From an uncultured Lachnospiraceae bacterium (GTDB lineage Bacteria; Bacillota; Clostridia; Lachnospirales; Lachnospiraceae), in the NCBI GenBank assembly GCA_948989975.1, contig CARHSH010000001.1:82906-146905 (forward strand): DNA of 64,000 bases, read 5' to 3'. Position numbers and translations under genes: made by a program. The notes under the pieces are model-generated. The model made no database searches and was not told the origin of the DNA. It was given only the letters and a program-made list of their open reading frames with translations. Below, piece after piece: positions 966 to 50,853 of the stretch; the first letter of the stretch is position 1; each line of letters opens with the position of its first letter.

Positions 966-2681
966 ATGGAAAATAGAATATTAGATTATGCTTGTGAACA
1001 GTTTGAGAGCCGTAATTATTGTGAAGCGTTGGAAGCGTTTGTTTTAGCTTATATGAAAGGTTATGAGCCGGAATGGGTGATTGAAAACATTTATAATTGT
1101 TATGTGGCTTGTAATGAGCTGGAATTTCGCAATGCTTATGGAAAGTGTGGGGCAGAGGTAAGCTATGAGGATTGCGTGTTGGACTTTATGCCTTATAAAG
1201 AAGGGGAATATTATATTTTTGATAAAGAGCGAAAGCAATTTATTGGAAAGTTCTTAGTTTCAGAACTAAAGATGGTTTCATCAGAGGAAGCATTAAATGA
1301 AATCGAGTTTGGCGCGGTGGCGGAAGCGTTCCATTGGAATCTGAAGGAAGAATATCAACTGCTTGCGGCGGCAAAAGACAAGAAAGTGTATGCAGTCTGC
1401 CATGAAATCAATTATATTTCTTCCTTTTATAAAATACCGGAGTTAGAAGAATATAATAAAAATGTGAAATTGTTTCAGGATTTCAGTCAGTTTCAGCAAT
1501 ATTTCCATAAAAATACGGGAGTTTATCTGCCCCGGATTTTGTCAGGGGATTTAGAGAGTGTAAAAGAATTAAATGAAATAGTTGAAGCGGAACATCAATT
1601 TAGATTAACTCCGGAGGGACGCAATACAGATCACGTATTGCTTACGATTGGGATACCTTCACGGAATAGAGGGAATCTTTTGTTAAAACGGCTGGAAAAT
1701 CTGCGGAACATAAAACTGGATGCGGAAATTGAAATTGCAATTTCGAAAAACGGCGTGGATTTCTATCAGGAAGAATATGATCAAGTGAATCAGGCGCAGG
1801 ATTCCAGAATTTGTTATTATGATCATCATAAGGATTTGGTGGCGCCTGAGAATTGGCATTTTGTGGTAGAAATGGCGCATGGGAAGTTTGTATTGCTGGT
1901 TTCGGATGAAGATGACATTATTTTAGATTCTTTAGGGCATTATCTAAAGCTGATAACGGAGTATCCGCAAGCGAGTGTGATAAGGGCAAAGTCCTGCATA
2001 TTTTATTCACGTTTATCGGAAAGATTGTATGCGGAAGGGACGGATGCATTAAAAAAAGGATTTTTGAAGCAAAATTATTTGTCAGGGTTGATTTTTCACA
2101 GGGAAAAGTTTTTAAAGCAAAATTTGCTGCGGTTAGAAAAATTCCGGGAAGAGAATTTATATTATTGCCTGTATCCGCATGAGTGGTGGTGCGCCATTTT
2201 GTCAAAAAAAGGCGTTTATATGGAAGAACCGTTTTTGTTGGTTCAGGAACGTGAGTCTGTGATTCAGGAAGAAAACTCAAAGTATATTGAAAAAGGAGTG
2301 ATAGAAGAAGGGGAGCATATTGCAAAGGGAACAAGCCTGCCGGCGTATTCTACATATGAAAGCCGCTTACAGCAGTTTTTAGGCATGATGGAATTTGTGC
2401 GTTGGATTGCGGATGGGGATAAGGAGCTTGCTTTTTTTTGCGTTGCAAGTTGTATAAGTAAAATTTTATTTCTATTGCTGCTGGCAAGGGATAGGGGGTA
2501 TGAAGTCTCAAACTTTATGAATATAGTTGATAAATTTTGCAAAATGTCTATTGAAGCAATCCGTGAGTTTGATTTTTCTGAGGAACAGCAAGTGCAGTTA
2601 TTATCAATATTAAAAACAAGCGCAATAGAAACATATGGGCAAGAGAGGGAGATTTTTGAAAAAGAACAGAATGCAGGATAG
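966..2681 (+). CDS. Putative glycosyltransferase (GT-A-like domain with an SDEDD DxD-type motif), N-terminal helical region, C-terminal domain shared with ORF 1..668
   Basis: 571-aa ORF. Central segment LLTIGIPSRNRGNLLLKRLENL...FVLLVSDEDDII resembles the GT2 nucleotide-binding/DxD region. RBS AAGGGGATGAG lies upstream. Confidence 0.45.
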   Translation: MENRILDYACEQFESRNYCEALEAFVLAYMKGYEPEWVIENIYNCYVACNELEFRNAYGKCGAEVSYEDCVLDFMPYKEGEYYIFDKERKQFIGKFLVSELKMVSSEEALNEIEFGAVAEAFHWNLKEEYQLLAAAKDKKVYAVCHEINYISSFYKIPELEEYNKNVKLFQDFSQFQQYFHKNTGVYLPRILSGDLESVKELNEIVEAEHQFRLTPEGRNTDHVLLTIGIPSRNRGNLLLKRLENLRNIKLDAEIEIAISKNGVDFYQEEYDQVNQAQDSRICYYDHHKDLVAPENWHFVVEMAHGKFVLLVSDEDDIILDSLGHYLKLITEYPQASVIRAKSCIFYSRLSERLYAEGTDALKKGFLKQNYLSGLIFHREKFLKQNLLRLEKFREENLYYCLYPHEWWCAILSKKGVYMEEPFLLVQERESVIQEENSKYIEKGVIEEGEHIAKGTSLPAYSTYESRLQQFLGMMEFVRWIADGDKELAFFCVASCISKILFLLLLARDRGYEVSNFMNIVDKFCKMSIEAIREFDFSEEQQVQLLSILKTSAIETYGQEREIFEKEQNAG

Positions 2682-2687
2682 GAAGAT

Positions 2688-3569
2688 ATGAAAACGATAT
2701 TAATTTTAGGATCAACCGGATTTATAGGGAGAAATTTAAAGGAATGGTTTGAGAAAAAGAAACAGTACACGGTTTTATGTCCTAATCGCAAAGAACTGGA
2801 TTTGCTCGATGAAAATATGGCAGATTCCTTTTTGGCGGCGCATAAAATAGATGTGGTTTTTAATTGCGCAATATTTTCTCCAAAGTCGGAAATGGAAGAA
2901 TTGGAAGTGATTGAAAAGGATTTGCGTATGTTTCTGAACCTTGAAAAAAATAAAGATAAATTTGGCAAAATGTTTTATTTTGGCTCTGGGGCGGAATATG
3001 ATAAGACAAAGCCTATTGTACAAGTGAAAGAGACGGATATTGGGAAAAGCATTCCGAAAAGCAGATATGGCATGGTAAAATATGTAATTGGACAAATGAT
3101 AGATGGATCGGATAATATCTATAATATACGGATATGGGGACTGTTTGGGAAGTATGAAGACTGGTGGACGACATTTATATCGAATTGCTGTTGTAAAGCA
3201 ATTAAGGATTACCCAATTTCCATTCGAAAAGACACGTATTTTGATTATCTTTGGATAGAGGATTTTTGCAGAATTGCCGAATGGGCAGTTGGACATGAAT
3301 TTGAGAGCCATACATACCATGCAGGGAGCGGACGGCGTATCTTACTGTCAGAAATTGCAAAAATAGTAAGGGACGTCAGCGGCAGGGAATTAGACATTAT
3401 TATTTGCAATGAGGGGCTGGGCAATGAATATACGGCGGACAGCTCACGTCTGATGAAGGAATATGGAAAAGACTATGTTACCCCTATGGAAACGGCAATC
3501 AGGGAATTGTATACATGGTATGAAACGCATCCGGAAATTATCAGTATGCAGAAATTAATATATGGTTAA
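2688..3569 (+). CDS. NAD(P)-dependent sugar epimerase/reductase (SDR family)
   Basis: N-terminal GSTGFIG Rossmann motif. Length (293 aa) and composition are typical of dTDP-4-dehydrorhamnose reductase / GDP-fucose synthase-like enzymes. Confidence 0.55.
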   Translation: MKTILILGSTGFIGRNLKEWFEKKKQYTVLCPNRKELDLLDENMADSFLAAHKIDVVFNCAIFSPKSEMEELEVIEKDLRMFLNLEKNKDKFGKMFYFGSGAEYDKTKPIVQVKETDIGKSIPKSRYGMVKYVIGQMIDGSDNIYNIRIWGLFGKYEDWWTTFISNCCCKAIKDYPISIRKDTYFDYLWIEDFCRIAEWAVGHEFESHTYHAGSGRRILLSEIAKIVRDVSGRELDIIICNEGLGNEYTADSSRLMKEYGKDYVTPMETAIRELYTWYETHPEIISMQKLIYG

Positions 3570-3597
3570 AACTTTTAGAGATTGAGAGGAATTTAAA

Positions 3598-4599
3598 ATG
3601 AACGATATTTTTGAAAACAAGTCAGTGCTGATTACCGGAGGGACAGGTTCTTTGGGAAAGTATTTTACAAGATACATTCTGACGCATTTTAATCCGCATC
3701 GGGTAGTGATATTTTCGCGTGATGAATATAAACAGAGCATGATGAAACAGGAATTTGCGCAGTATGGGGATAAGCTGAGATTTTTTATCGGTGACGTGAG
3801 GGATAAAGACAGGCTTCTAAGGGCGTTCGACAGAGTGCAGATTGTAATTCATGCAGCAGCGATTAAACAGGTGCCGACTTGTGAATATAACCCGATAGAG
3901 GCTATTAGGACGAATATTAATGGGGCGATGAATGTCATTGACGCCGCGATTGACCGGAAGGTGGAGTGTGTTGTGGCGTTGTCAACGGACAAAGCGGTGA
4001 ACCCGGTAAACTTATATGGCGGAACAAAATTAGTTTCGGACAAGCTTTTTGTGGCGGCGAATGCCTATGCAAAAATTTCAGGGACAAAGTTTAGCGTTGT
4101 CCGGTATGGAAATGTGGCGGGCAGCAGGGGAAGCGTGATCCCGTTTTTTGAGAAACTTATGGCGGAAGGAAAGACAACGCTTCCGGTGACGGACGTGCGC
4201 ATGACGCGGTTTTGGATTGATTTGGAGCAAGGGGTTAAATTAATTTTAAAAGCTTTATATACGGCTGTTGGCGGCGAAGTTTTCGTTTCTAAAATACCTT
4301 CTTTTAAAGTGACGGATTTGGTAAAAGCCATGAATCCGGATGGTTCCATTGAGGAAGTCGGTATCCGTGAAGGGGAAAAGCTGCATGAAGTAATGATTAC
4401 AGATGTAGATTCAAGAAGGACGGTTGAATTAGGGGACTGTTATGTGATTATGCCGGAATTTTCATGGTATAAGCCAAATGAAGAAATAAAAGCGGGGAAA
4501 AAGCTTCCAGATGAATTTGTTTATAGTTCAGATAAAAATACGAGCTGGCTTTCTGTGGAACAGCTTCAAGAAAAATTAAAATTATATCGAAAGAAATAG
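3598..4599 (+). CDS. pseB: UDP-GlcNAc 4,6-dehydratase/5-epimerase (first step of pseudaminic acid biosynthesis)
   Basis: Collinear similarity to Campylobacter/Helicobacter PseB (FlaA1): ITGGTGSLGK, FFIGDVRDKDRL, LSTDKAVNPVNLYGGTKL, SVVRYGNVAGSRGSVIPFF, TRFWI. Confidence 0.85.
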   Translation: MNDIFENKSVLITGGTGSLGKYFTRYILTHFNPHRVVIFSRDEYKQSMMKQEFAQYGDKLRFFIGDVRDKDRLLRAFDRVQIVIHAAAIKQVPTCEYNPIEAIRTNINGAMNVIDAAIDRKVECVVALSTDKAVNPVNLYGGTKLVSDKLFVAANAYAKISGTKFSVVRYGNVAGSRGSVIPFFEKLMAEGKTTLPVTDVRMTRFWIDLEQGVKLILKALYTAVGGEVFVSKIPSFKVTDLVKAMNPDGSIEEVGIREGEKLHEVMITDVDSRRTVELGDCYVIMPEFSWYKPNEEIKAGKKLPDEFVYSSDKNTSWLSVEQLQEKLKLYRKK

Positions 4600-4609
4600 A
4601 GGGATTCAT

Positions 4610-6067
4610 TTGGAACGGTTTGAATTAACGGAAAAAACTAAACTATGGATTTACGGGGCAGCTTTTGGAGGAACGCTCTTATATGAAAAACTGCATAAGA
4701 ATCATTATCAGGTGGAAGGGTTTATAGATAAAAGGGCAGAGGAAATAGAGAGTTTATGCGGGCTTTCCGTCTATAGCGTAAAACAAGCCAAAGAACGTAT
4801 GGGACGTGGGCAGCTAACAGTCATTATTTCAGTGAAAAATGTGTTTGAACATAGCGGCATTGCCAGAGAGTTAATAAAAAATGGAATTACAAACATCATT
4901 TATAAGCCATATGCGGCTCTGAAAGGATTTGCAGACGAATCAGCAAAAGAAATGTTTGAGCTTCATAATCAGTTGATTGATTGCGGCTTTTGTAAGGGCG
5001 GCAGGTTTTGCAGGGCGGACGAAATAGAAAAGAATTGGGAAATCCCAAAAGAATATTTGCTGGCCAAAGATTCCAAAATGCAGACAGTTTTTCTGCCTCT
5101 GCCTATGCTGTTTGAAAACCAAAGCGTTACGGGCGGATATAAGGAACGGAATGTTTGTTTTTTATATCCGCATATACAATTCTTCCGGTATCTTCAAGGA
5201 GAAGCTGACGCTTCCTGCCAGCGCTATCTGGAGTATTGTGAGATGGCAGTGGAAGAATTGGATTCTTTTCAAGTTACGGAAGCGTGGAAAGAAAATGTGA
5301 TCCGAAACAGGGCAGATGTGTTTTACCAGATGAACCATGGGTTTTTGTTCCAGAAAGATTTTTTTGTCAGAAATTCGCCAGAGGCGGAATGGAATGAGGA
5401 CGGATACTTTAACTTGAAAAGCGGGAAGCACAGAGCGGCATTTTTTGCCGCCCGCCGTCAGATGTATATTCCCGTAAAGATCACTCATTCGGATGCAGAA
5501 AAATGGATTTCTGAGGATAGGGCAAATGAGGTGAAAAAAGAGCTTTTACAACAGGGCGTATTTGAATTAAAAGCTCCGGTTGAGCATCCATTTTTTTATC
5601 AGATGCCATGTACGGCAGAGAATTTTTTCTATGGCGTATGCTGCGCGTTGGCAGATGAACTCGGCGGGTTGTATTATCAAACGCCAATGGATCATGTATT
5701 GAAAGGCAAAAAGATATATTTGAATGTAGATGATTATGGGTTTGTCAGCCGTTTTTTCAGGAGAAGCGGGGCTATGGTATACGATGCCGATGAAAGGGAC
5801 CGGAAATTGAAAGAAGCGTTAGAAAGATTGTTTTCGCTTCATTTTGGAAGGCTTGTCGCCGCTCAGGAACATTACGACTTGGCGGTGTTTAAAACAGACT
5901 GCCCGCAAAATTTGAAGCAATGTCTGGAAACTATTTTGGCGGATCATTATTTTATCCTTGCCCCAGAGAGCATTTTGTTGGAAACTGAGTGGATAAAAAG
6001 AGTTTATTGTGGGGCTGCATGGGGAAAAAGCATGGTTTTGTGGCATTTGGAGAAATGTAATGTTTGA
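4610..6067 (+). CDS. Uncharacterised protein, paralog 1 of 3: NeuD/PglD-N-like Rossmann N-terminus plus central ParB/sulfiredoxin-like motif SGKHR
   Basis: 485 aa. N-terminus LWIYGAAFGG...YQVEGFIDKRAEE resembles the N-domain of NeuD/PglD acyltransferases. Motif FNLKSGKHRAAFFAARRQMYIPV resembles the ParB/Srx DGhHR-A-P signature. Homologous to 6060..7490 and 8555..9784. Confidence 0.5.
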   Translation: MERFELTEKTKLWIYGAAFGGTLLYEKLHKNHYQVEGFIDKRAEEIESLCGLSVYSVKQAKERMGRGQLTVIISVKNVFEHSGIARELIKNGITNIIYKPYAALKGFADESAKEMFELHNQLIDCGFCKGGRFCRADEIEKNWEIPKEYLLAKDSKMQTVFLPLPMLFENQSVTGGYKERNVCFLYPHIQFFRYLQGEADASCQRYLEYCEMAVEELDSFQVTEAWKENVIRNRADVFYQMNHGFLFQKDFFVRNSPEAEWNEDGYFNLKSGKHRAAFFAARRQMYIPVKITHSDAEKWISEDRANEVKKELLQQGVFELKAPVEHPFFYQMPCTAENFFYGVCCALADELGGLYYQTPMDHVLKGKKIYLNVDDYGFVSRFFRRSGAMVYDADERDRKLKEALERLFSLHFGRLVAAQEHYDLAVFKTDCPQNLKQCLETILADHYFILAPESILLETEWIKRVYCGAAWGKSMVLWHLEKCNV

Positions 6068-7490
6068 CATTCAAAAAGAGAGCAGGATAGTCCTTTACGG
6101 GCATTCGCAATTTGACATTGTGAAAGATAAATTCCGGGAACTAAAAGAACGTGGATATCAGGTGCTTGGATATATAGATCAAAGGGCAAAAGAGATTGAA
6201 ACGTATGTACAGGCGCCTTGTTGGACAGTAGAAGATTTTCCAGTTGGGCTAAAAGAACGTCAAGACATCGTAATTATATTGTTATTGCAAAATGCGCGGA
6301 TGCATGAGTCCATTGTATCTTCACTTTGCGGCAGGGGATTTAAAAAATTTTTATTTTTACCGGAAAAAGCGGATACATCTGAGAAAACATGTATGGTGCA
6401 AAAGTACAATGCCTTTATACGGTCAGAATATGATGAGTTGATGGGGATTCCTGAATGGGACAGCTTGTGTTTAAATTCTGTAAAAGGTGGAAAGCGGTTT
6501 TTGAAATGTGGAAAAGAACGCTGTACGCTTTTGGTTCCGGTGGAAATGCTGTTTCTTTATGAACAGGAGCAGTCTTTAGAAGAAAATATCGCGTTTGCAG
6601 AGGATTATCTGGAATTATTTGCGGTATTAGAAGGAAAGGCATTTGAATGCGGACGTTATTTTAATTTCATGGGAGCGGTGGAGAAGGAAGAAAAAGAAAA
6701 ATTACTGGCTGACCGTTTGGCGTTATATTGTTTGTGGGAACATTACAGACACTGCGATATAAATTATTTTATAGAAGCGGCTGCGCTTGTTTCATGGAAC
6801 CGGAGAGGATATTTTAATATTATTGACGGGCATCATAGAGTGATTTATCTGATGGCAAAGGGGTATAAGAAGATTCCCGTATCCATGCCGCTTAAAGATT
6901 ATGATAAGTGGATAGGAGAGGCAGATCAGGCATTGTCCGCTGCGCTGCGCAGATTGCGCGTCCCAATTCCACATCCGTTTTTTTTGAATGAAGAATGTAT
7001 CTATGAAACGCACTGGCAGAAAGTGATTCATTATTTATATGCGGCAGGACAAAGCAGGGACTGCAGGTTTGTGGAAATAGATACTTATATGGGATATTAT
7101 GCGGGGGCTTTCCAGAGAATTGTAAAAAAAGAAGCTCTGATAGTTTTAGAGAATGAGACGGATAAACGCTTATGTGAAAGTATGCAAAGGCTCATGCATC
7201 AAAAAATACCCATTTTGAACTATCCAGAAGTTATGTTTCGCGAAACCGATCTTGTCTATCTGAAATTGGCTGGAAATGAGGAAGCGTCTTTTATGCGTTT
7301 TATAAAGGACGTAACTGGACAGTGTATTTTGCTGGATATTCCTTGGGAAGAAGAAGGGAAGACGTTAAAAGAGGCTGTCCGCATTCTTGGGGGAGATTTG
7401 AAACAGATAGGCAGTTATCATAGAGATAAGGCGTATGGAATTTATGTGATTGAAAGGAGTGTTGGCAATTATGGCAGAGGTGACGACTAG
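6060..7490 (+). CDS. Uncharacterised protein, paralog 2 of 3 (NeuD-N-like plus ParB/Srx-like DGHHR)
   Basis: Start ATG at 6060 overlaps the stop of paralog 1 by 8 nt (RBS GGAGAAATG). Motifs: IVLYGHSQF...YQVLGYIDQRAKEIE; FNIIDGHHRVIYLMAKGYKKIPV. Confidence 0.5.
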   Translation: MFDIQKESRIVLYGHSQFDIVKDKFRELKERGYQVLGYIDQRAKEIETYVQAPCWTVEDFPVGLKERQDIVIILLLQNARMHESIVSSLCGRGFKKFLFLPEKADTSEKTCMVQKYNAFIRSEYDELMGIPEWDSLCLNSVKGGKRFLKCGKERCTLLVPVEMLFLYEQEQSLEENIAFAEDYLELFAVLEGKAFECGRYFNFMGAVEKEEKEKLLADRLALYCLWEHYRHCDINYFIEAAALVSWNRRGYFNIIDGHHRVIYLMAKGYKKIPVSMPLKDYDKWIGEADQALSAALRRLRVPIPHPFFLNEECIYETHWQKVIHYLYAAGQSRDCRFVEIDTYMGYYAGAFQRIVKKEALIVLENETDKRLCESMQRLMHQKIPILNYPEVMFRETDLVYLKLAGNEEASFMRFIKDVTGQCILLDIPWEEEGKTLKEAVRILGGDLKQIGSYHRDKAYGIYVIERSVGNYGRGDD

Positions 7491-15597: not shown

Positions 15598-16293
15598 GTG
15601 GAGGCAAAGGAGATATTCTTAACGACAGAAGGGGACGCATGGTATAGAAGAAACCGTGAAAAACTGGAAGAAACAAAAAATTTTATTGCGGCAGAGATAA
15701 TCATAGAATTTTTAAACAGACAAAAGAGCGGTATGGGAATGAATGGCTTTGCATGGGAGCGTTTTAAGATTTTAGAAGTCGGATGCAGTTATGGTTATCA
15801 TTTGGCAAAGTTTTGTGAAGCGTTTCCCTGCCAGTGCTATGGAATTGAGCCGTCAAAAGAAGCGGTGGAAGACGGCAGTCATAAATATAAAGGCCTGCCT
15901 ATGCAGTTAGTTCAGGGGACAGGTGATTCTCTGCCATATGAAGCGGAATCTATGGATATTGTCATTATGGGGTTTTGTATGTTTTGGATGGATAGAAATC
16001 ATCTGCTGCAGGCGTATGCGGAAGCGGACAGGGTCTTAAAACCAAAGGGATTGCTTATAATTTATGATTTTGACACGAAGCTTCCCTATGTCAGAGACAA
16101 TGCGCACAGTAAAGATGTGGATACATTTAAAATGGATTATGCAAAAGCGTTGACGGCTCTGCCGCATTATTACTTAATGGATAAAACGGTGTTTTGCCAT
16201 AAAGGAAATTATTTTGATGAAGATATACAGGAAAGGATTTCCATGCAGATTCTTTATAAGGAGGATTTCAAAGATGCATATATCAGAGGGTGA
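15598..16293 (+). CDS. Class I SAM-dependent methyltransferase (intact paralog)
   Basis: LEVGCSYGYHLAKF, DIVIMGFCMFWMDR, LKPKGLLIIYD. ~60% identical to the frameshifted copy. Confidence 0.65.
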   Translation: MEAKEIFLTTEGDAWYRRNREKLEETKNFIAAEIIIEFLNRQKSGMGMNGFAWERFKILEVGCSYGYHLAKFCEAFPCQCYGIEPSKEAVEDGSHKYKGLPMQLVQGTGDSLPYEAESMDIVIMGFCMFWMDRNHLLQAYAEADRVLKPKGLLIIYDFDTKLPYVRDNAHSKDVDTFKMDYAKALTALPHYYLMDKTVFCHKGNYFDEDIQERISMQILYKEDFKDAYIRG

Positions 16294-33989: not shown

Positions 33990-34280
33990 AAGAATCTTCA
34001 GGGCAGGGTGACTTTGCAAAGCAGGGGATTCCCTACCGGTGGTAAAGCCCACGAGCCGCAAGGCATGATTCGGTGACTCTTATCAAACGGCAAAAGCCGG
34101 ATAAGCGGGATTCCGAAGCCGACAGTATAGTCTGGATGAAAGAAGGTAAATGTCGTATCGTTTTTAGGCGCTTCCTGTATGCCATTTGGCTTTAAAAGAC
34201 GGCATATATAAGACGAGGGACATGGTTTGCATTGTGGGAGAACCGGCTCTGAAATAGATTGTTTCAGCGCCGGTTTTTTG
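33990..34280 (+). promoter_or_regulatory. FMN riboswitch (RFN element) with terminator-type expression platform, upstream of ribD
   Basis: Aptamer core tcttcaGGGCAGGGTGa...CCGGTGGTAAAGCCCACGAGCC...CCGAAGCCGACAGTATAGTCTGGATGAAAGAAGG. Terminator CCGGCTCTGAAAtagattgTTTCAGCGCCGG followed by TTTTTT. Confidence 0.85.
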
Positions 34281-34381
34281 ATGGCAGAGTTTTTGCGCAA
34301 GCCAGAGTTTTTGCGCAAGCCAGAGTTTTTTTGACAGGGCAGTGTTTTTTGGGGATTGAAAAAGGGAAGGGAAGTGACAAG

Positions 34382-46770: not shown

Positions 46771-48798
46771 ATGAGCCGTAAAAAGAAAAAGAAAAAATAC
46801 CGTGTGTTTTGGTTTTTTGCAAAACTTCAGTTTGTTCTGATGCTTTTGGTAGCCGCCGCCCTAGGCTACTATTATTATGGAGGATATGCCGTACAGGTTC
46901 AGAAGATGAAAGCGGAAGCTGTGCGGTTTGTGCGCGGGTCGACAGAAGCCACGTTTTGCGTGGCTCAGACCAGCGTTGTGTATGACAAAGACGGAAATAC
47001 GATTTCAACGTTAAAAGGGGAAAAAGACGTTTACTATCTGCCATATGAGGATATTCCGTCTGATGCATGCGCCGCTATCGTAAGCATAGAAGATAAAAAA
47101 TTTTATCAGCATAATGGAATTGATTACCGGGCGATTTTCCGCGCGGCAAGAGCCGCGATTGAAAACGGAGAAGTGACACAGGGCGGGAGCACGATAACAC
47201 AGCAGCTTGCAAGGACGATTTTTTTGACACAGGATCGGACATGGCAGAGAAAAGTCGAGGAAATGTTTATTGCAACAGAGCTGGAAAAAAAGTACAGTAA
47301 AAATAAAATCCTAGAATTTTATCTGAATAATATATATTTTGGCAATGGTTATTATGGGATTCAGGCGGCGAGCAGAGGATACTTTAATGCAGACGTGAAT
47401 GACTTGGATTTGTCACAAATTGCGTTTTTATGCGCCATTCCCAATAATCCGACGCTTCATGACCCGCTGACGAATATGCAAAACACGTTAGGGCGCAGAG
47501 ACCGCATTCTTTTAAATATGTATGAAGACGGGAAAATTTCAAAAGGCGCGTACCTGATGGCAAAATCGGAGGAAATCACATTAAACCGGCCAGAGCATAC
47601 AAAAAATAACTATGTGGAGACGTATACATATTATTGCGCAATACGTCTGTTAATGGAACGGGAAGGCTTTGTTTTTCAGACAGAATTTAAAAATGACGAA
47701 GAAAAAAGCCTGTATGATACGCGTTATAGTGATTTGTATGCGGAATGCCAGAAAAAACTGTTTACAGCGGGCTACCGCATCTATACGTCAATGGATTTAA
47801 AATTACAGGAACTTCTTCAAAAGACAATAGATGAAAAACTCTCCGGTTTTACAGACGTAAATGAAGAAGGCGTATTTAAACTACAAGGAGCAGGCGTCTG
47901 CATAGAGAATGAGACAGGATATGTCAGGGCAATCGTCGGGGGCAGAAGCCAAGACTTTGCGGGATATACGTTAAACCGGGCATATCAAAGCTATAGGCAG
48001 CCAGGAAGCGCAATTAAGCCGATACTAGTGTATACGCCGGCGTTGGAACAGGAATATACGCCGGATTCGATTGTAGTGGACGAACCGATTGAAGAAGGCC
48101 CGTCGAATGCAGACGGAAGTTATAGTGGAGAGATGACGCTGCGTTCTGCGCTGGCCCGTTCGAAAAACACGATTGCATGGAAACTATTAGAGGAGATAAC
48201 GCCAAAAAAAGGACTCTCTTATTTAAAAGCAATGAAATTTTCGCGGATTGCAGACGAAGACGAGCGGCTTACGTCAGCTTTAGGAGGATTGACAAACGGA
48301 GTGTCCCCAGTCGAACTTACAGCGGCTTACGCAACGCTTGAAAACGACGGAAAATACCGCGCTCCAACCTGCATCATAAAAATTACAGATGCCGACGGCA
48401 ACGAAATTCTCTCCACTTCACAAGAAGAAACAAACATCTATAAAACAACTGCTGCCCGCATGGCGACGAATATGCTTGTTACGGCAATAACGGAAGGAAC
48501 CGGCAGAGGGCTTGGCGTAACGGGAATGCCGTCCGCAGGAAAAACAGGGACGACGAATGACAATAAAGACGGTTGGTTTGCAGGGTATACGCGTTATTAT
48601 ACGACAAGTGTCTGGGTCGGCTACGATATGCCGGAAAAACTTCCCGGTTTATCTGGATCTTCCTATCCGGGGGAGATATGGCGCAGTTTCATGGAAACCT
48701 GCCATGCCGGACTGCCGGCGCTTGAGTTTTTGCCTTATGTAGATGTGGAAATGGATTTGTACCAGAAGATACGGCAGGATGCCCTAGGAGAACAATAA
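46771..48798 (+). CDS. Class A penicillin-binding protein (transglycosylase/transpeptidase, PBP1A-like)
   Basis: N-terminal TM anchor; GT51 motifs (EDKKFYQHNGID, GGSTITQQLAR); transpeptidase SAIKP, SKN, KTGT. Confidence 0.85.
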   Translation: MSRKKKKKKYRVFWFFAKLQFVLMLLVAAALGYYYYGGYAVQVQKMKAEAVRFVRGSTEATFCVAQTSVVYDKDGNTISTLKGEKDVYYLPYEDIPSDACAAIVSIEDKKFYQHNGIDYRAIFRAARAAIENGEVTQGGSTITQQLARTIFLTQDRTWQRKVEEMFIATELEKKYSKNKILEFYLNNIYFGNGYYGIQAASRGYFNADVNDLDLSQIAFLCAIPNNPTLHDPLTNMQNTLGRRDRILLNMYEDGKISKGAYLMAKSEEITLNRPEHTKNNYVETYTYYCAIRLLMEREGFVFQTEFKNDEEKSLYDTRYSDLYAECQKKLFTAGYRIYTSMDLKLQELLQKTIDEKLSGFTDVNEEGVFKLQGAGVCIENETGYVRAIVGGRSQDFAGYTLNRAYQSYRQPGSAIKPILVYTPALEQEYTPDSIVVDEPIEEGPSNADGSYSGEMTLRSALARSKNTIAWKLLEEITPKKGLSYLKAMKFSRIADEDERLTSALGGLTNGVSPVELTAAYATLENDGKYRAPTCIIKITDADGNEILSTSQEETNIYKTTAARMATNMLVTAITEGTGRGLGVTGMPSAGKTGTTNDNKDGWFAGYTRYYTTSVWVGYDMPEKLPGLSGSSYPGEIWRSFMETCHAGLPALEFLPYVDVEMDLYQKIRQDALGEQ

Positions 48799-48806
48799 AT
48801 CCGAAC

Positions 48807-49036
48807 GCCAAACAGAGCGCCGGGTATTCTGTCGGCGAAGTGTTCAGGGATTAAGGAGTTCTAAAGTATCCCATGTTTTATGCCGGTGACGGACGAAACC
48901 GCTCTAAAAGCGCCGTCCATGGCGCATTAGAGCTTCCGCAGACATCGTGTCTGCGGATTTCTGTTTGTTGAAGGGATACTTAAGAACTCCTAAATCCCAT
49001 CACAAGGCGCCAACAGAATACCCGGCGCTCTGTTCG
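48807..49036. repeat. Palindromic module IR1 (two ~66-bp inverted arms around a ~100-bp loop that itself contains a perfect 9-bp hairpin)
   Basis: Arms CGCCAAACAGAGCGCCGGGTATTCTGTCGGCG...GGGATTAAGGAGTTCTAAAGTATCCC and its near-perfect reverse complement at 48973-49036. Loop hairpin CCGCAGACAtcgTGTCTGCGG. Confidence 0.85.
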
Positions 49037-49470
49037 TCTGGTAGTTGGGGGTGGAACGTATGAGAGAGTTGGAAGTTGAAGAAAGAAGAAAGTTACGCTT
49101 TCAAGTCCTAAAGTTCATTAAAGGCGCCAATAGGAAACCCGGCGCTCTGTTCGTTTGGTAGTTGGGGGTGGAACATATGAGAGAGTGGAAGTTGAAGAAA
49201 GAAGAAAGTTACGCTTTCAAGTCCTAAAATTCATTAAAGGCGCCAATAGGAAACCCTGCGTTTTGTTGGTCTGGTAGTTGGGTGTGGAACATATGAGAGA
49301 GTGGAAGTTGAAGAAAGAAAATATGTGCGCATTAAAGACCTAAATTCCATCAAAGGCGCCAATAGAAAACCCAGCTCTAAGTTGGTCTGGTAGTTGGAGG
49401 CTGGAACGTATGATAAGGCGCTGATAGAATCTACGGCGCTCAGTTTGTCTGGTAGTAGTTAGGGAGTGAA
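49004..49470. repeat. Four tandem direct repeats of ~116 bp (copies 1-3 ~85-90% identical, copy 4 degenerate)
   Basis: Unit: AAAGGCGCCAATAGGAAACCCGGCGCTCTGTTCGTTTGGTAGTTGGGGGTGGAACATATGAGAGAGTGGAAGTTGAAGAAAGAAGAAAGTTACGCTTTCAAGTCCTAAAATTCATT. Unit starts at 49004, 49120, 49236, 49352. Confidence 0.85.
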
Positions 49471-49611
49471 ACGTATGAAAACGTGGCGATTTTTAAAGAG
49501 GTGAAAAGTTAAACAAAAATCCTAAAAACCTACACATCTATATTTATGTAGATATACCAAAACAAAAAGAAACAAAGCCAAAACCCTATCGGGCAGCCAG
49601 TAACGTAGTCA

Positions 49612-49824
49612 GGGGGTGGCGCTTGGCGGGTGGCGTTATGATTGGATTTAGAACTTCTTAACAGTCACATTTCGATTCAGGAATCCGCGAACAGGACGTT
49701 CGCGGAAGCTCCATTCACGCCATGGACGGCGTGTATGGAGCGGTTCCGTCCGTATTCAAGATAGCTGCGGGACTGTTTAGAAGTTCTTAATCCATGAATA
49801 AGTCACCCGCCAAGCGCCACCCCA
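49612..49824. repeat. Palindromic module IR2, an inverted (reverse-complement) copy of the IR1 module
   Basis: Arms GGGGGTGGCGCTTGGCGGGTG...GAACTTCTTAACAGTC and complement at 49763-49824. The loop's reverse complement aligns to the IR1 loop (ACGGACG-AACCGCTC...CGCCGTCCATGGCG...GAGCTTCCGC...GCGGATT). Confidence 0.8.
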
Positions 49825-49852
49825 TGACGGACACATTTATTTAATTATGGAT

Positions 49853-49881
49853 TGACATTAACCCCCCACAATTTTATACTT
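49853..49881 (+). promoter_or_regulatory. Sigma-A promoter TTGACA-N17-TATACT for glcK
   Basis: ttgacattaaccccccacaattttatact. The spacer contains a C6 run. Confidence 0.55.
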
Positions 49882-49914: not shown

Positions 49915-50853
49915 ATGAAAAAATATGGTTTTGGCGTAGACATTGGCGGGACGACCTGTAAGATTGGACTGTTCGAGACGACAGGGGGGCTTGTGGAAAA
50001 ATGGGAAATTCCCACAAGAAAAGAAAATAATGGAGAAAATATCCTTCCGGACGTTGCGGCGTTTATAACGGCGAAAATGGTGGAAAAGGATATTTTAAAA
50101 GGAGACATTCAGGGAATTGGAATTGGGGTTCCGGGGCCTGTGACTGGGGAAGGCGTTGTATTAAAATGCGTCAACTTGGGCTGGGATGTGATTAATGTTG
50201 CAAAGGATATGGAAGAACGGACGGGCTTTACCGTAAAAGTCGGCAATGACGCAAATGTGGCTGCGCTTGGCGAAATGTGGCAGGGCGGCGGCAAAGGATA
50301 TACGAATGTTGTAATGATTACGCTTGGGACCGGAGTGGGCGGCGGCGTAATCGTTGATGGAAAAGTTGTCAGTGGAAATAAAGGAGCCGGCGGGGAAATC
50401 GGGCATATTATTGTCAATGAGAATGAGACGGAATCTTGTGGATGTGGACAGAAAGGCTGTTTGGAGCAGTATGCATCCGCAACTGGGATTGTCCATATGG
50501 CAGAGCGTAAGTTAGAGGAATCGGAGAAGAAAAGCCAGCTTCGTGAGATTAAGCCGTTGACGGCAAAAGATATTTTTGACGCGGCAAAAGGGGGCGACGC
50601 CTTAGCCGATGAAATTGTGGAAGATATGACTAAGATATTAGGCGGGGCGCTTGCAAATGTTGCCCGTGTCGTAAATCCTGAGACTTTTGTAATTGGCGGC
50701 GGCGTGTCGAAAGCAGGCAGCATTATTACGGAGCGTGTCAAAAAATACTATGACGCCAAGTCGTTTAATGCGTGTCTGGACGCTCATTTTGACCTTGCAA
50801 CTTTGGGAAATGATGCAGGAATTTACGGTTGTGTGCGTATGATTTTAGAATAA
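49915..50853 (+). CDS. glcK: ROK-family glucokinase
   Basis: GFGVDIGGTTCKIGLFE; ROK Cys motif ...CGCGQKGCLEQYAS. RBS AAGGAGAAGG. Confidence 0.85.
   Translation: MKKYGFGVDIGGTTCKIGLFETTGGLVEKWEIPTRKENNGENILPDVAAFITAKMVEKDILKGDIQGIGIGVPGPVTGEGVVLKCVNLGWDVINVAKDMEERTGFTVKVGNDANVAALGEMWQGGGKGYTNVVMITLGTGVGGGVIVDGKVVSGNKGAGGEIGHIIVNENETESCGCGQKGCLEQYASATGIVHMAERKLEESEKKSQLREIKPLTAKDIFDAAKGGDALADEIVEDMTKILGGALANVARVVNPETFVIGGGVSKAGSIITERVKKYYDAKSFNACLDAHFDLATLGNDAGIYGCVRMILE

Follow-up and report, generated by a model that had tools for sequence, protein, structure and literature searches.

Paired TwoAYGGAY RNA elements between PBP1A and glcK of a Lachnospiraceae bacterium: possible mobile carriers of a structured RNA

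The window is the whole stretch of DNA analysed, 64,000 nucleotides from an uncultured Lachnospiraceae bacterium. A 1,053-bp block separates its genes for a class A PBP (PBP1A) and a ROK glucokinase (glcK), and the neighbours of the block are APH, His_Phos_1, SpoVT, PBP1A, ROK, DUF4317, TrkA, TrkH, RsgI and SigI. An initial annotation, made from the sequence alone, held the block to be non-coding and the flanking genes to be intact. Both points were borne out, since PBP1A and glcK have full open reading frames with their domains and the block holds no ORF longer than 42 aa. The features of the locus are as follows.

46771-48798: intact ORF of the class A PBP (PBP1A), with Transgly and Transpeptidase domains
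48799-49851, no strand: the whole lineage-specific insertion, 1,053 bp, between the PBP1A stop codon and the glcK promoter's -35 box
48799-48810, minus strand: 3' tail of copy 1, UGGCGUUCGGAU, whose continuation UUAUUG reaches into the stop codon of PBP1A; a weak terminator-like context
48811-49034, minus strand: TwoAYGGAY copy 1 (Rfam core 48840-49005; RF01731, 135.2 bits)
49004-49413, no strand: tandem array of 3.5 units of 116 bp, 88% matches, score 592 (TRF)
49410-49490, no strand: two degenerate part-units of 62-65 bp, outer arm and flank only, probably older duplications
49491-49607, plus strand: leader of copy 2, A/T-rich, conserved among strains, ending in GGGCAGCCAGTAACGTAG
49608-49828, plus strand: TwoAYGGAY copy 2 (Rfam core 49636-49801; RF01731, 120.5 bits)
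49852-49880, plus strand: glcK promoter TTGACA-17-TATACT, 11/12 consensus match, outside the element and the right-hand limit of the insertion
49915-50853: intact ORF of the ROK glucokinase (glcK)

Sister species keep the order SpoVT-PBP1A-glcK-DUF4317. The spacer from the PBP stop codon to the glcK ATG is 76, 61 and 63 bp in species whose glcK is 90-91%, 85% and 80% identical, compared with 1116 bp here. Synteny with short spacers in three sister-species tiers shows that the block is a lineage-specific insertion, as the initial annotation had supposed. The glcK promoter is also found at the empty sites, where it abuts the PBP stop codon. The locus was filled in every same-species strain examined. 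A blastn comparison of the block with 50,697 phage and 72,556 plasmid records returned no matches, and the strict core pattern had no match in IMG/VR.

Both modules are members of the TwoAYGGAY RNA family RF01731. In cmscan each spanned model positions 1-168 of 168, against a gathering score of 43 bits. The initial annotation had suggested a structured-RNA element, which stands, but had not recognised the catalogued family. Each element is 221-224 bp and folds as a hairpin of ~220 nt. The inverted arms of copy 1 (48811-48872/48973-49034) are 62 nt long and 85% complementary; those of copy 2 (49608-49666/49771-49828) are 59 nt long, with 25 nt paired at 96% and 31 nt at 84%. The closing stem exceeds the Rfam model by ~29 bp on each side in copy 1 and ~28 bp in copy 2. 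The RNA folds have energies of -144.5 kcal/mol (z = -17.1) for copy 1 and -138.3 kcal/mol (z = -15.8) for copy 2, and 0/200 shuffles were equally stable in either case. The arms and folds agree with the earlier description of each module as internally palindromic.

The modules had also been described as reverse-complement copies of one another, and they are indeed opposite strands of one family. Their resemblance is lower than first stated: the loops are 66% rather than ~80% identical, the Rfam cores 70% and the whole modules 64%. Within each "loop" there are two hairpins in place of the one first described. The minus strand carries copy 1 and the plus strand carries copy 2, so the pair is oriented 5'-to-5' and points apart. 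Loop 2 is AUGGAC in both copies and the second hairpin is GCCAUGGACGGC in both. Loop 1 is ACAGGACG in copy 2, with GGA present; in copy 1 it is a CACGAUG variant that has no GGA and whose stem closes on a triloop. GGA is missing from loop 1 in 6/30 family members (L019, both L035 copies, L082, L113 and window copy 1), which places the CACGAUG variant of copy 1 within the family's range. The copy 2 tail (GGA..AUUUAUU) is similar to that of copy 1, and a terminator-like site with the tail CGGATTTATT lies on the minus strand at 48821-48804. At its other end, copy 2 is preceded by GGGCAGCCAGTAACGTAG, a 5' extension common to related copies of other genera (L007, L099, L069 and L034). The leader is ~97% identical between the window and strain contig L132, while the array has diverged.

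Sequence constraint was examined in a family set of ~30 Lachnospiraceae copies (30-31 depending on the test). Compensatory double changes were found at 26/32 consensus pairs (30 copies), and the loop 2 pattern GCCAYGGAYGGC is nearly invariant (28/30 members). Arm length varies from 59 to 111 nt in 30 copies. The mismatches of the modelled P1 stem comprise 22 G-U and 3 A-C (p = 1.6e-4). The outer extension has 47 G-U and 40 A-C mismatches, as neutral decay predicts. Flanking sequence is rich in C and poor in G when read on the sense strand, downstream in 25/31 copies (p = 0.002). These substitution patterns show that the core structure is under selection on the annotated strand. By the same evidence the outer arms are in neutral decay, like an inverted repeat in DNA and unlike an RNA helix under selection. 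One within-species compensatory change in the outer arm of copy 1 (C-G, then A.G, then A-T) hints that outer pairing may be partly non-neutral.

The initial annotation had called the element MITE-like. Long inverted arms and the lack of a transposase fit that description; a target-site duplication does not accompany the window copies, as none was found next to copy 1 (48811/49034), copy 2 (49608/49828) or the ends of the composite. Hallmarks of transposition were found in a related group of copies, subgroup B, in which homology begins and ends at GGATTCGGGTGTCAAAAGG terminal repeats. The subgroup B locus L113 has an 8-bp target duplication, CTTAAAAA. A filled (L158/L159) and an empty (L166) allele differ by 314 bp, with a TTTATGG duplication (L111/L158), and come from strains in which the neighbouring MatE protein is 98% identical. 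For L113, unlike L111, no empty site was found: the nearest relatives are 74-76% identical and non-syntenic, and the only identical contig breaks off right at the element. Ends of the GGATTCGGGTGTCAAAAGG type presumably bear a loose resemblance to those of the IS6/IS26 family, which the 8-bp duplication would fit. The search for an autonomous partner found the terminal repeat GATTCGGGTGTCAAAAGG only at TwoAYGGAY elements in the loci examined, and the subgroup B element had no match among plasmid records. Judged from terminal repeats, 7-8 bp duplications and filled/empty alleles in subgroup B, related TwoAYGGAY elements are evidently mobile.

The module is neither single-copy nor without relatives, which are abundant. 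Hespellia and Agathobacter MAGs hold at least 3-4 copies, and one MAG carries several that are 83-94% identical. Within the 64-kb window there is no copy beyond the two; contig breaks at 49725 and a chimeric contig point to a third copy with an identical core. The sites are diverse. PBP1A or glcK adjoins the element at 0/30 other TwoAYGGAY loci, and the PBP1A-glcK locus was absent among 10 metagenome loci matching the species-specific core pattern, which comprise single copies in other contexts and L152. Relative to the gene on its 5' side the element has the same orientation in 16 cases and the opposite in 13; on the 3' side the counts are 14 and 16. Among the matches listed in a loose core-pattern scan of genome contigs, many are chance matches in G+C-rich genomes, and the Lachnospiraceae loci alone are usable. 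Pattern matches adjoining csrA in Phycisphaerae had no Rfam match and were rejected.

Paired copies are nearly always divergent (8 divergent, 1 convergent, 0 tandem; p = 1.1e-4), and no sequence is common to the spacers of pairs from one species and another. Element ends carry an excess of tandem arrays, with 9 in 32 kb compared with 18 in 257 kb (p = 0.002).

Our preferred reading, to which we assign a probability of roughly 65%, is that two TwoAYGGAY elements inserted 5'-to-5' in this lineage, that they are MITE-like carriers of a structured RNA, and that the array is a duplicated half of copy 1. The element comprises a conserved core of two short stem-loops with A(Y/R)GGAY loops, closed by a very long stem. 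Such elements may be non-autonomous DNA, moved in trans by a transposase and carrying a functional structured RNA. A broader proposal is that TwoAYGGAY is the conserved RNA core of MITE-like mobile hairpins in gut Lachnospiraceae, marked by 7-8 bp target duplications, 5'-to-5' pairs and hypervariable end arrays, and a candidate CsrA decoy that is spreading, with the window composite as one paired insertion. That proposal falls a little short of even odds.

The elements could instead be purely selfish MITE-like DNA, in which the hairpin is a consequence of terminal repeats, the RNA has no function and the arrays and pairs are junk. Much of what has been described would suit such DNA: the terminal repeats, 7-8 bp duplications and filled/empty pair of subgroup B, several copies per genome at non-syntenic sites, the neutral mismatch spectrum of the outer arms, the inconsistent orientation relative to neighbouring genes and the lack of a promoter signal. 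A selfish palindrome does not need an asymmetric core kept across genera, with compensatory changes at 26/32 pairs and near-invariant loops and junctions, nor the 22 to 3 G-U bias of the inner stem, nor the C>G skew of the sense-strand flanks. These features count against the selfish reading, which we consider unlikely. A site recognised by a host factor or transposase on single-stranded DNA could mimic part of the pattern of core conservation.

Signals of transcription were sought around the copies. No sigma-70 match was found upstream of either window copy, and upstream of the family copies there was no sigma-70 enrichment, with strong promoter-like matches in 5 sense and 9 antisense cases. 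Inspection by eye for sigma-D or sigma-54 motifs upstream gave nothing convincing. A promoter may lie in the 49491-49607 leader, where there is no sigma-70 consensus match. The 3' tails of the window copies are weakly U-rich, and the 3' flanks in the family are mostly without U-tracts. The C>G skew of the flanks on the sense strand suggests transcription. As promoters are not enriched, the argument for transcription is drawn from strand-specific signals only.

If transcribed, the core would most likely act as a protein decoy. Rfam places TwoAYGGAY in clan CL00106, which we take to be the Csr/Rsm clan. A CsrA dimer bridging two GGA loops is the leading candidate partner of the core, although we regard it as a tentative and rather doubtful one. 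Copy 2 displays GGA in two loops and copy 1 in one; each RNA offers at most two sites, and the loop 1 GGA is missing in 6/30 copies, window copy 1 among them. No csrA gene was found in the 64-kb window or at related loci, and its absence from the window also speaks against the idea, as does the antagonism of Firmicute CsrA by the protein FliW. Gardner and Eldai (PMC4333381) put forward CsrA titration as the role of TwoAYGGAY, and functional CsrAs that repress a GGA-hairpin target are present in Roseburia, Agathobacter and a further Lachnospiraceae species (PMC13443453).

We also considered a local role, in which the hairpins act as an insulator or terminator that stops PBP1A read-through into glcK and the first hairpin of copy 1 serves on the plus strand as the PBP1A terminator. 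In sister species the glcK promoter follows the PBP stop codon directly, and no terminator intervenes. Here, the plus strand at 48935-48957 forms a 10-bp G+C-rich hairpin followed by TTTCTGTTTG, and the hairpin energies are about -140 kcal/mol. Insulation would leave the conservation of the family unexplained, as copies occur in every orientation to their neighbours; U-tracts are missing from most 3' flanks. As the reason for the element's existence it is quite improbable, and insulation is better read as a side effect. Under the preferred reading, two very stable hairpins now stand between PBP1A and the promoter of glcK, where they probably stop read-through.

The tandem array was compared with copy 1 and among strains. 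A repeat search found a fourth unit copy, 63% identical, embedded in the inverted repeat of copy 1 (IR1) at 48953-49068. This homology of unit to IR1 supports the earlier claim that module 1 gave rise to the array. The part of the unit that derives from IR1 is larger than the ~35 nt first given: ~80 nt come from the right arm and adjoining junction, and the remaining ~35 nt come from the flank immediately outside the IR1 arm. In the sense of copy 1, the unit consists of 5' flank, 5' arm and ~20 nt of junction. The array is G/A-rich on the plus strand, or C-rich and G-poor in copy 1's sense. Strains carry 3.5 (window), 4.5 (L002) or 5.5 (L001) units. The array is the most diverged segment of the block between strains. 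The cores, by comparison, are 97-98% identical between the window and L132, and the degenerate part-units are conserved between these two. A CRISPR-like array was rejected, as the units are contiguous and head-to-tail, spaced by one unit length (116-117 bp).

We read the array as a by-product of the long palindrome and not as a functional module. Unequal recombination or slippage would expand, contract and scramble it. It is very improbable that the array is functional, either as a CsrB-like sponge with many GGA sites or as a series of small-peptide genes behind a GGGGGTGGAAC-ATG motif. UGGAA motifs do occur in every unit, and AUAGGAAA lies in the loop of a GGCGCC/GGCGC hairpin in two units. 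GGA itself is at or near expectation, enriched on neither strand (plus, 11 compared with 12.9 +/- 2.9 expected; minus, 3 compared with 2.1), and loop GGA is present in only 2/5 units. Each unit has the motif GGGGGTGGAACrTATGA, as the initial annotation observed, and 16-aa ORFs recur in several units. The frames after the motif are not conserved, again as first noted: the ORFs are 33, 16, 16, 4 and 9 aa long and the start codon is lost in L132. Psychromonas TwoAYGGAY copies likewise have tandem repeats after them; the array remains the fastest-diverging segment between strains. The candidate array peptide under the small-peptide reading is MREWKLKKEESYAFKS.

The least probable reading of all, an invertible switch of the kind raised in the initial annotation in which recombination between the modules flips the array segment and alters neighbour expression, draws on two inverted copies, 64-70% identical, that bracket a 570-bp segment and on the recurrence of divergent pairs in other genomes, but the array has the same orientation in 5/5 complete same-species contigs, no recombinase gene lies within ~6 kb, glcK has its own promoter outside the block and the pair spacers of other species share no sequence.

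TwoAYGGAY has been in Rfam since 2010 without a known function and is common in abundant human-gut Lachnospiraceae. This locus and its relatives add four points. Close relatives differ in the presence of the elements, which bear transposon hallmarks in one subgroup; strand-specific structural selection acts on the core and not on the long outer stem; pairs are nearly always divergent; and the element ends are hot spots of unstable tandem duplication. If the CsrA idea is true, flagellated gut commensals harbour a decoy of a post-transcriptional regulator that spreads as mobile DNA; otherwise the family still offers a clear example of a MITE whose internal RNA is conserved. In practical terms, short-read assemblies break at the repeats of this locus, and the array can serve directly as a strain marker.

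The TwoAYGGAY RNA motif was described by Weinberg et al. 2010 (RF01731, PMC2864571). The window copies share with it two adjacent hairpins, an AUGGAC loop 2, a very long P1, a human-gut Clostridiales host and no tie to any particular neighbour gene. They differ in the 5'-to-5' arrangement with a half-copy array between, the GGA-less loop 1 of copy 1 and the ~29-bp stem extension. Pairing, boundary arrays and mobility are absent from the family descriptions in the literature that mentions the motif, a 2026 bioRxiv preprint aside.

CsrB, CsrC and RsmX-Y-Z resemble TwoAYGGAY in having GGA-containing hairpin loops with a spacing that suits a CsrA dimer. Those sponges carry ~5-22 GGA sites, compared with at most two per TwoAYGGAY RNA. 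They are also gammaproteobacterial, non-mobile and without a closing stem of 60-110 nt.

Correia elements, ERIC and RUP are bacterial MITEs or palindromic repeats that are transcribed into hairpins. Like TwoAYGGAY they are 220-320 bp, non-coding and intergenic, with long inverted arms, several copies and presence/absence between strains; the target-site duplications of the subgroup B relatives are a further likeness. The TwoAYGGAY core differs: it is asymmetric, is kept across genera and shows compensatory changes, and its loops are invariant. For TwoAYGGAY no parent insertion sequence was found, and the window copies have no detectable target duplication.

In E. coli, long DNA palindromes undergo SbcCD-dependent breakage and template switching, which lead to rearrangements. 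The TwoAYGGAY elements show a similar picture, as tandem and inverted duplications cluster at palindrome ends and copy number is unstable. By this analogy, palindrome-induced rearrangement would most probably account for the array, and also for those pairs (L007 and L099) in which each member is the closest relative of the other.

A repeat search recovered the two internally palindromic modules described in the initial annotation, with both pairs of arms located. Measured against dinucleotide shuffles, the RNA folds reach −144.5 kcal/mol (z −17.1) for module 1 and −138.3 kcal/mol (z −15.8) for module 2. The modules are less alike than the ~80% first claimed (64-70% identity), and each central loop contains two hairpins rather than one. 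Both modules are full-length matches to Rfam RF01731, TwoAYGGAY RNA (gathering score 43 bits), so that the suggested structured RNA now has a family.

Features of the inserted block (window coordinates)
48811-48872/48973-49034: arms of module 1, 62 nt, 85% complementary (repeat search)
48840-49005, minus strand: TwoAYGGAY copy 1 (RF01731, 135.2 bits)
49608-49632/49804-49828 plus 49636-49666/49771-49801: arms of module 2 (repeat search)
49636-49801, plus strand: TwoAYGGAY copy 2 (RF01731, 120.5 bits)
TTGACA-17-TATACT: glcK promoter, conserved, just outside the block

Because copy 1 is on the minus strand and copy 2 on the plus strand, the RNAs diverge and the array lies between their 5' ends. 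The sole further Rfam match in the window is an FMN riboswitch aptamer (RF00050, 82.1 bits) at 33990-34151 (+). The TwoAYGGAY motif was first reported from human-gut metagenomes, Clostridiales and gamma-proteobacteria by Weinberg et al. 2010 (PMC2864571), who described a P1 stem that is often very large and noted neither a cis-regulatory association nor a known function. No experimental follow-up was found in the accessible literature.

The flanking ORFs, a class A penicillin-binding protein and a ROK glucokinase, are intact as originally stated. The exact glcK protein is present on many gut-metagenome contigs (NCBI label 'MAG: Eubacterium sp.'), and the order SpoVT-PBP1A-glcK-DUF4317 is kept in sister species whose glcK is 90-91%, 85% and 80% identical. 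In these species the PBP stop lies 76, 61 and 63 bp from the glcK start, respectively, compared with 1116 bp in the window. Since the conserved glcK promoter adjoins the PBP stop at these empty sites, the insertion spans 48799-49851. Clearly, two TwoAYGGAY elements inserted at this locus, and the empty sites bear out the earlier view of an inserted element. The target-site duplications sought at the block ends were not seen, either there or flanking copy 1 or copy 2. In the sister genome JAAWDZ01 the site is empty (L129), yet a TwoAYGGAY is present elsewhere (L034). Synteny with the window locus was found for 0/30 other Lachnospiraceae TwoAYGGAY loci. At about −140 kcal/mol each, the two hairpins now lie between PBP1A and the glcK promoter, where they probably halt read-through; this would be a side effect and not the function of the family.

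Relatives of the window elements transpose. In one subgroup (L011, L021, both L095 copies, L113, L111 and L020), homology is confined precisely to the stretch between terminal inverted repeats of the GGATTCGGGTGTCAAAAGG type, outside which the flanks are unrelated. Four Hespellia copies are mutually 83-94% identical, and L113 has an 8-bp direct repeat, CTTAAAAA, on either side. The decisive case is a Roseburia element between MFS_2 and MatE genes (contigs L111, L158 and L159) that is absent from L166, whose MatE protein is 98% identical. Filled and empty sites differ by 314 bp, which is the 307-bp element plus a TTTATGG duplication. Together, the terminal repeats, the direct repeat and this filled/empty pair establish that TwoAYGGAY-bearing hairpins are mobile and MITE-like in at least this subgroup. 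The original MITE-like suggestion is thus partly supported: these relatives bear the transposon hallmarks, and the window copies have long inverted arms but no target duplication was seen at them. No parent transposon was found in the loci compared or in a plasmid search with the subgroup element, and no similar sequence was found in phage, plasmid and IMG/VR collections.

The window's species may carry another copy, a third, whose core is identical. Low-coverage contig L140 is 99.4% identical to contig L152 (229-2693) until the middle of the TwoAYGGAY core and then runs on into the glcK locus, as either an assembly chimera or a genuine recombinant via the shared core would. Five independent Logan contigs (L141-L145, different runs) begin at window 49725, inside copy 2 and roughly a k-mer short of where the segment common to the L152-type copy ends, consistent with a repeat-induced assembly break. 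It is from the L140 switch and these contig starts that we infer the third copy. L152 and copy 2 have 38-71 nt of core sequence exactly in common and their arms are different, suggesting gene conversion between cores.

One genome per species was scanned for the motif pattern; with the Rfam searches that followed, this gave at least ~30 complete copies, those listed coming from Roseburia, Agathobacter, Lachnospira, Lachnobacterium, Hespellia, Dorea, Waltera, Eubacterium and one Senegalimassilia bin. Compensatory double changes occur at 26/32 consensus pairs of the core, and there is almost no variation in loop 2 or in several junction motifs (n=30 copies). Most copies have A(N)GGAY as loop 1; 6/30, including window copy 1, have CACGAUG. 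The core is under selection as a structure. The stem always runs far past the Rfam model, with arms of 59-111 nt (at least ~30 copies). In the modelled stem G-U mismatches outnumber A-C 22 to 3 (p = 1.6e-4), a signature of RNA pairing selected on the annotated strand, whereas the outer extension has 47 G-U and 40 A-C, as expected of a neutrally decaying DNA inverted repeat. These counts show that the cores are conserved as structures on their annotated strands and that the long outer arms have the behaviour of inverted repeats in DNA. Against purely neutral outer-arm decay stands a compensatory series within the species at one outer-stem pair of copy 1 (window 48821/49024): the window and strain locus L001 have C-G, L132 and L133 have A.G, and L002 has A-T.

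The copies listed are always intergenic and have no preferred orientation relative to neighbouring genes, and no sigma-70 promoter enrichment was found upstream of them. Over 60 nt on each side of them, the sense strand is rich in C and poor in G (downstream 25/31, p = 0.002; upstream 20/32, p = 0.026), a skew consistent with transcription. A purely selfish MITE agrees with the DNA-level facts but leaves the conserved asymmetric core, the G-U bias and the flank skew unexplained, and we consider it unlikely. Less likely again is a local terminator or insulator, which does not explain why the family occurs in every orientation.

A 7-kb contig from a Senegalimassilia (Coriobacteriia) bin carries a full TwoAYGGAY (121 bits; L120 5179-5345) with 69% identity to a copy from goat Lachnospiraceae, reflecting either cross-phylum transfer or a binning error. 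On contig L082 a GA-cis RNA (RF02987, 69 bits) at 7102-7190 (-) lies ~300 nt downstream of a TwoAYGGAY at 6636-6801 (+), on the opposite strand. Loose pattern matches lie ~400 nt from csrA in two Phycisphaerae MAGs (L075 2660-3243, L081 1650-2233); Rfam finds no TwoAYGGAY there, so that chance or coding sequence probably accounts for these matches in G+C-rich DNA.

The tandem array was confirmed by Tandem Repeats Finder (116 bp, 49004-49413, 3.5 copies, 88% matches). An extra copy, 63% identical, is embedded in module 1, and two degenerate 62-65-bp part-units carry the array on to 49490. About 80 nt of each unit (arm plus junction) comes from module 1, not the ~35 nt initially proposed. In the sense of copy 1, each unit joins the 62-nt 5' arm to ~35 nt of the flank on its 5' side and ~20 nt of junction, and there is a 10-nt indel; thus the array is a tandem duplication of half an element. 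Strains with identical glcK have 3.5 (window, L132, L133), 4.5 (L002) or 5.5 (L001) units, and the contigs of several assemblies end within the block. When the window is compared with a strain whose glcK is 99% identical, the cores agree at 97-98% whereas the array is rearranged and far more diverged. No GGA enrichment was found on either strand of the array. Its ATG-led ORFs encode 33, 16, 16, 4 and 9 aa, and the other strain has lost one of the start codons, in keeping with the earlier non-coding reading. Because of its unit number, divergence, GGA counts and ORFs, the array is regarded as an unstable by-product of copy 1 with no module function of its own. A functional array, whether sponge or peptide source, is made very improbable by the same GGA counts, ORF instability and rapid divergence. 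Least probable is an invertible switch as first suggested, since there is no recombinase gene within about 6 kb and no second orientation in five complete same-species contigs. Two further short tandem repeats occur in the window, at 34285-34330 (18 bp x 2.6) and 16199-16250 (26 bp x 2.0).

Pairs are common among the matches listed, and are divergent in eight cases, convergent in one and tandem in none (p = 1.1e-4 vs random), and their spacers have no sequence in common between species. Members of the window and Roseburia L069 pairs belong to different sublineages, each matching across genera; those of the L007, L099, L037 and L045 pairs are each other's closest relatives. The only convergent pair among the matches listed (L095 887-1946) brackets with its 3' ends one ~204-aa ORF starting MADYTGIADTGNRILDLL, which may resemble a phage-tail or eCIS-associated DUF4255-type protein. 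Arrays flank the 5' side in L099 (160 bp x 2.2), L097 (74 bp x 3.9) and L152/L140 (31 bp x 2.5), and the 3' end in L007 (22 bp x 7.4). Tandem-array density at element ends is 4x that in the rest of the loci (p = 0.002), a comparison partly confounded by coding DNA in the control. Lachnobacterium contig L004 has five separate arrays (periods 20-72 bp) at 1625-6268, away from its TwoAYGGAY copy. Long palindromes provoke replication and repair errors, and such errors would most simply explain both the array and the same-sequence inverted pairs. In the supplementary alignment of PMC2864571, the Psychromonas ingrahamii rows (NC_008709) show ~100-nt repeats with ACACGCCGUCAGGGCGGAAGACCAACAA 3' of TwoAYGGAY. 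Psychromonas is a gamma-proteobacterium, and tandem repeats beside the motif therefore extend beyond Lachnospiraceae.

The elements are probably non-autonomous mobile DNA with a functional RNA cargo, whose core may offer two loops to a dimeric protein. A further-reaching reading, at a probability of about 0.45, is that a family of MITE-like elements has TwoAYGGAY as its RNA core and may act as a CsrA decoy that moves. CsrA is the best candidate for the protein because the two GGA loops match its site, as Gardner and Eldai proposed (PMC4333381), and because the CsrAs of Roseburia, Agathobacter and other Lachnospiraceae actively repress GGA-hairpin targets (PMC13443453). The predicted binding is kept tentative, and somewhat doubtful, because of the loop 1 variants without GGA and the maximum of two sites per RNA. 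Since the modules join a known, catalogued RNA family, the core of this finding is not new. Divergent pairing, boundary arrays, neutral outer arms and transposon hallmarks appear in no accessible TwoAYGGAY literature, and they render an orphan RNA family directly testable.
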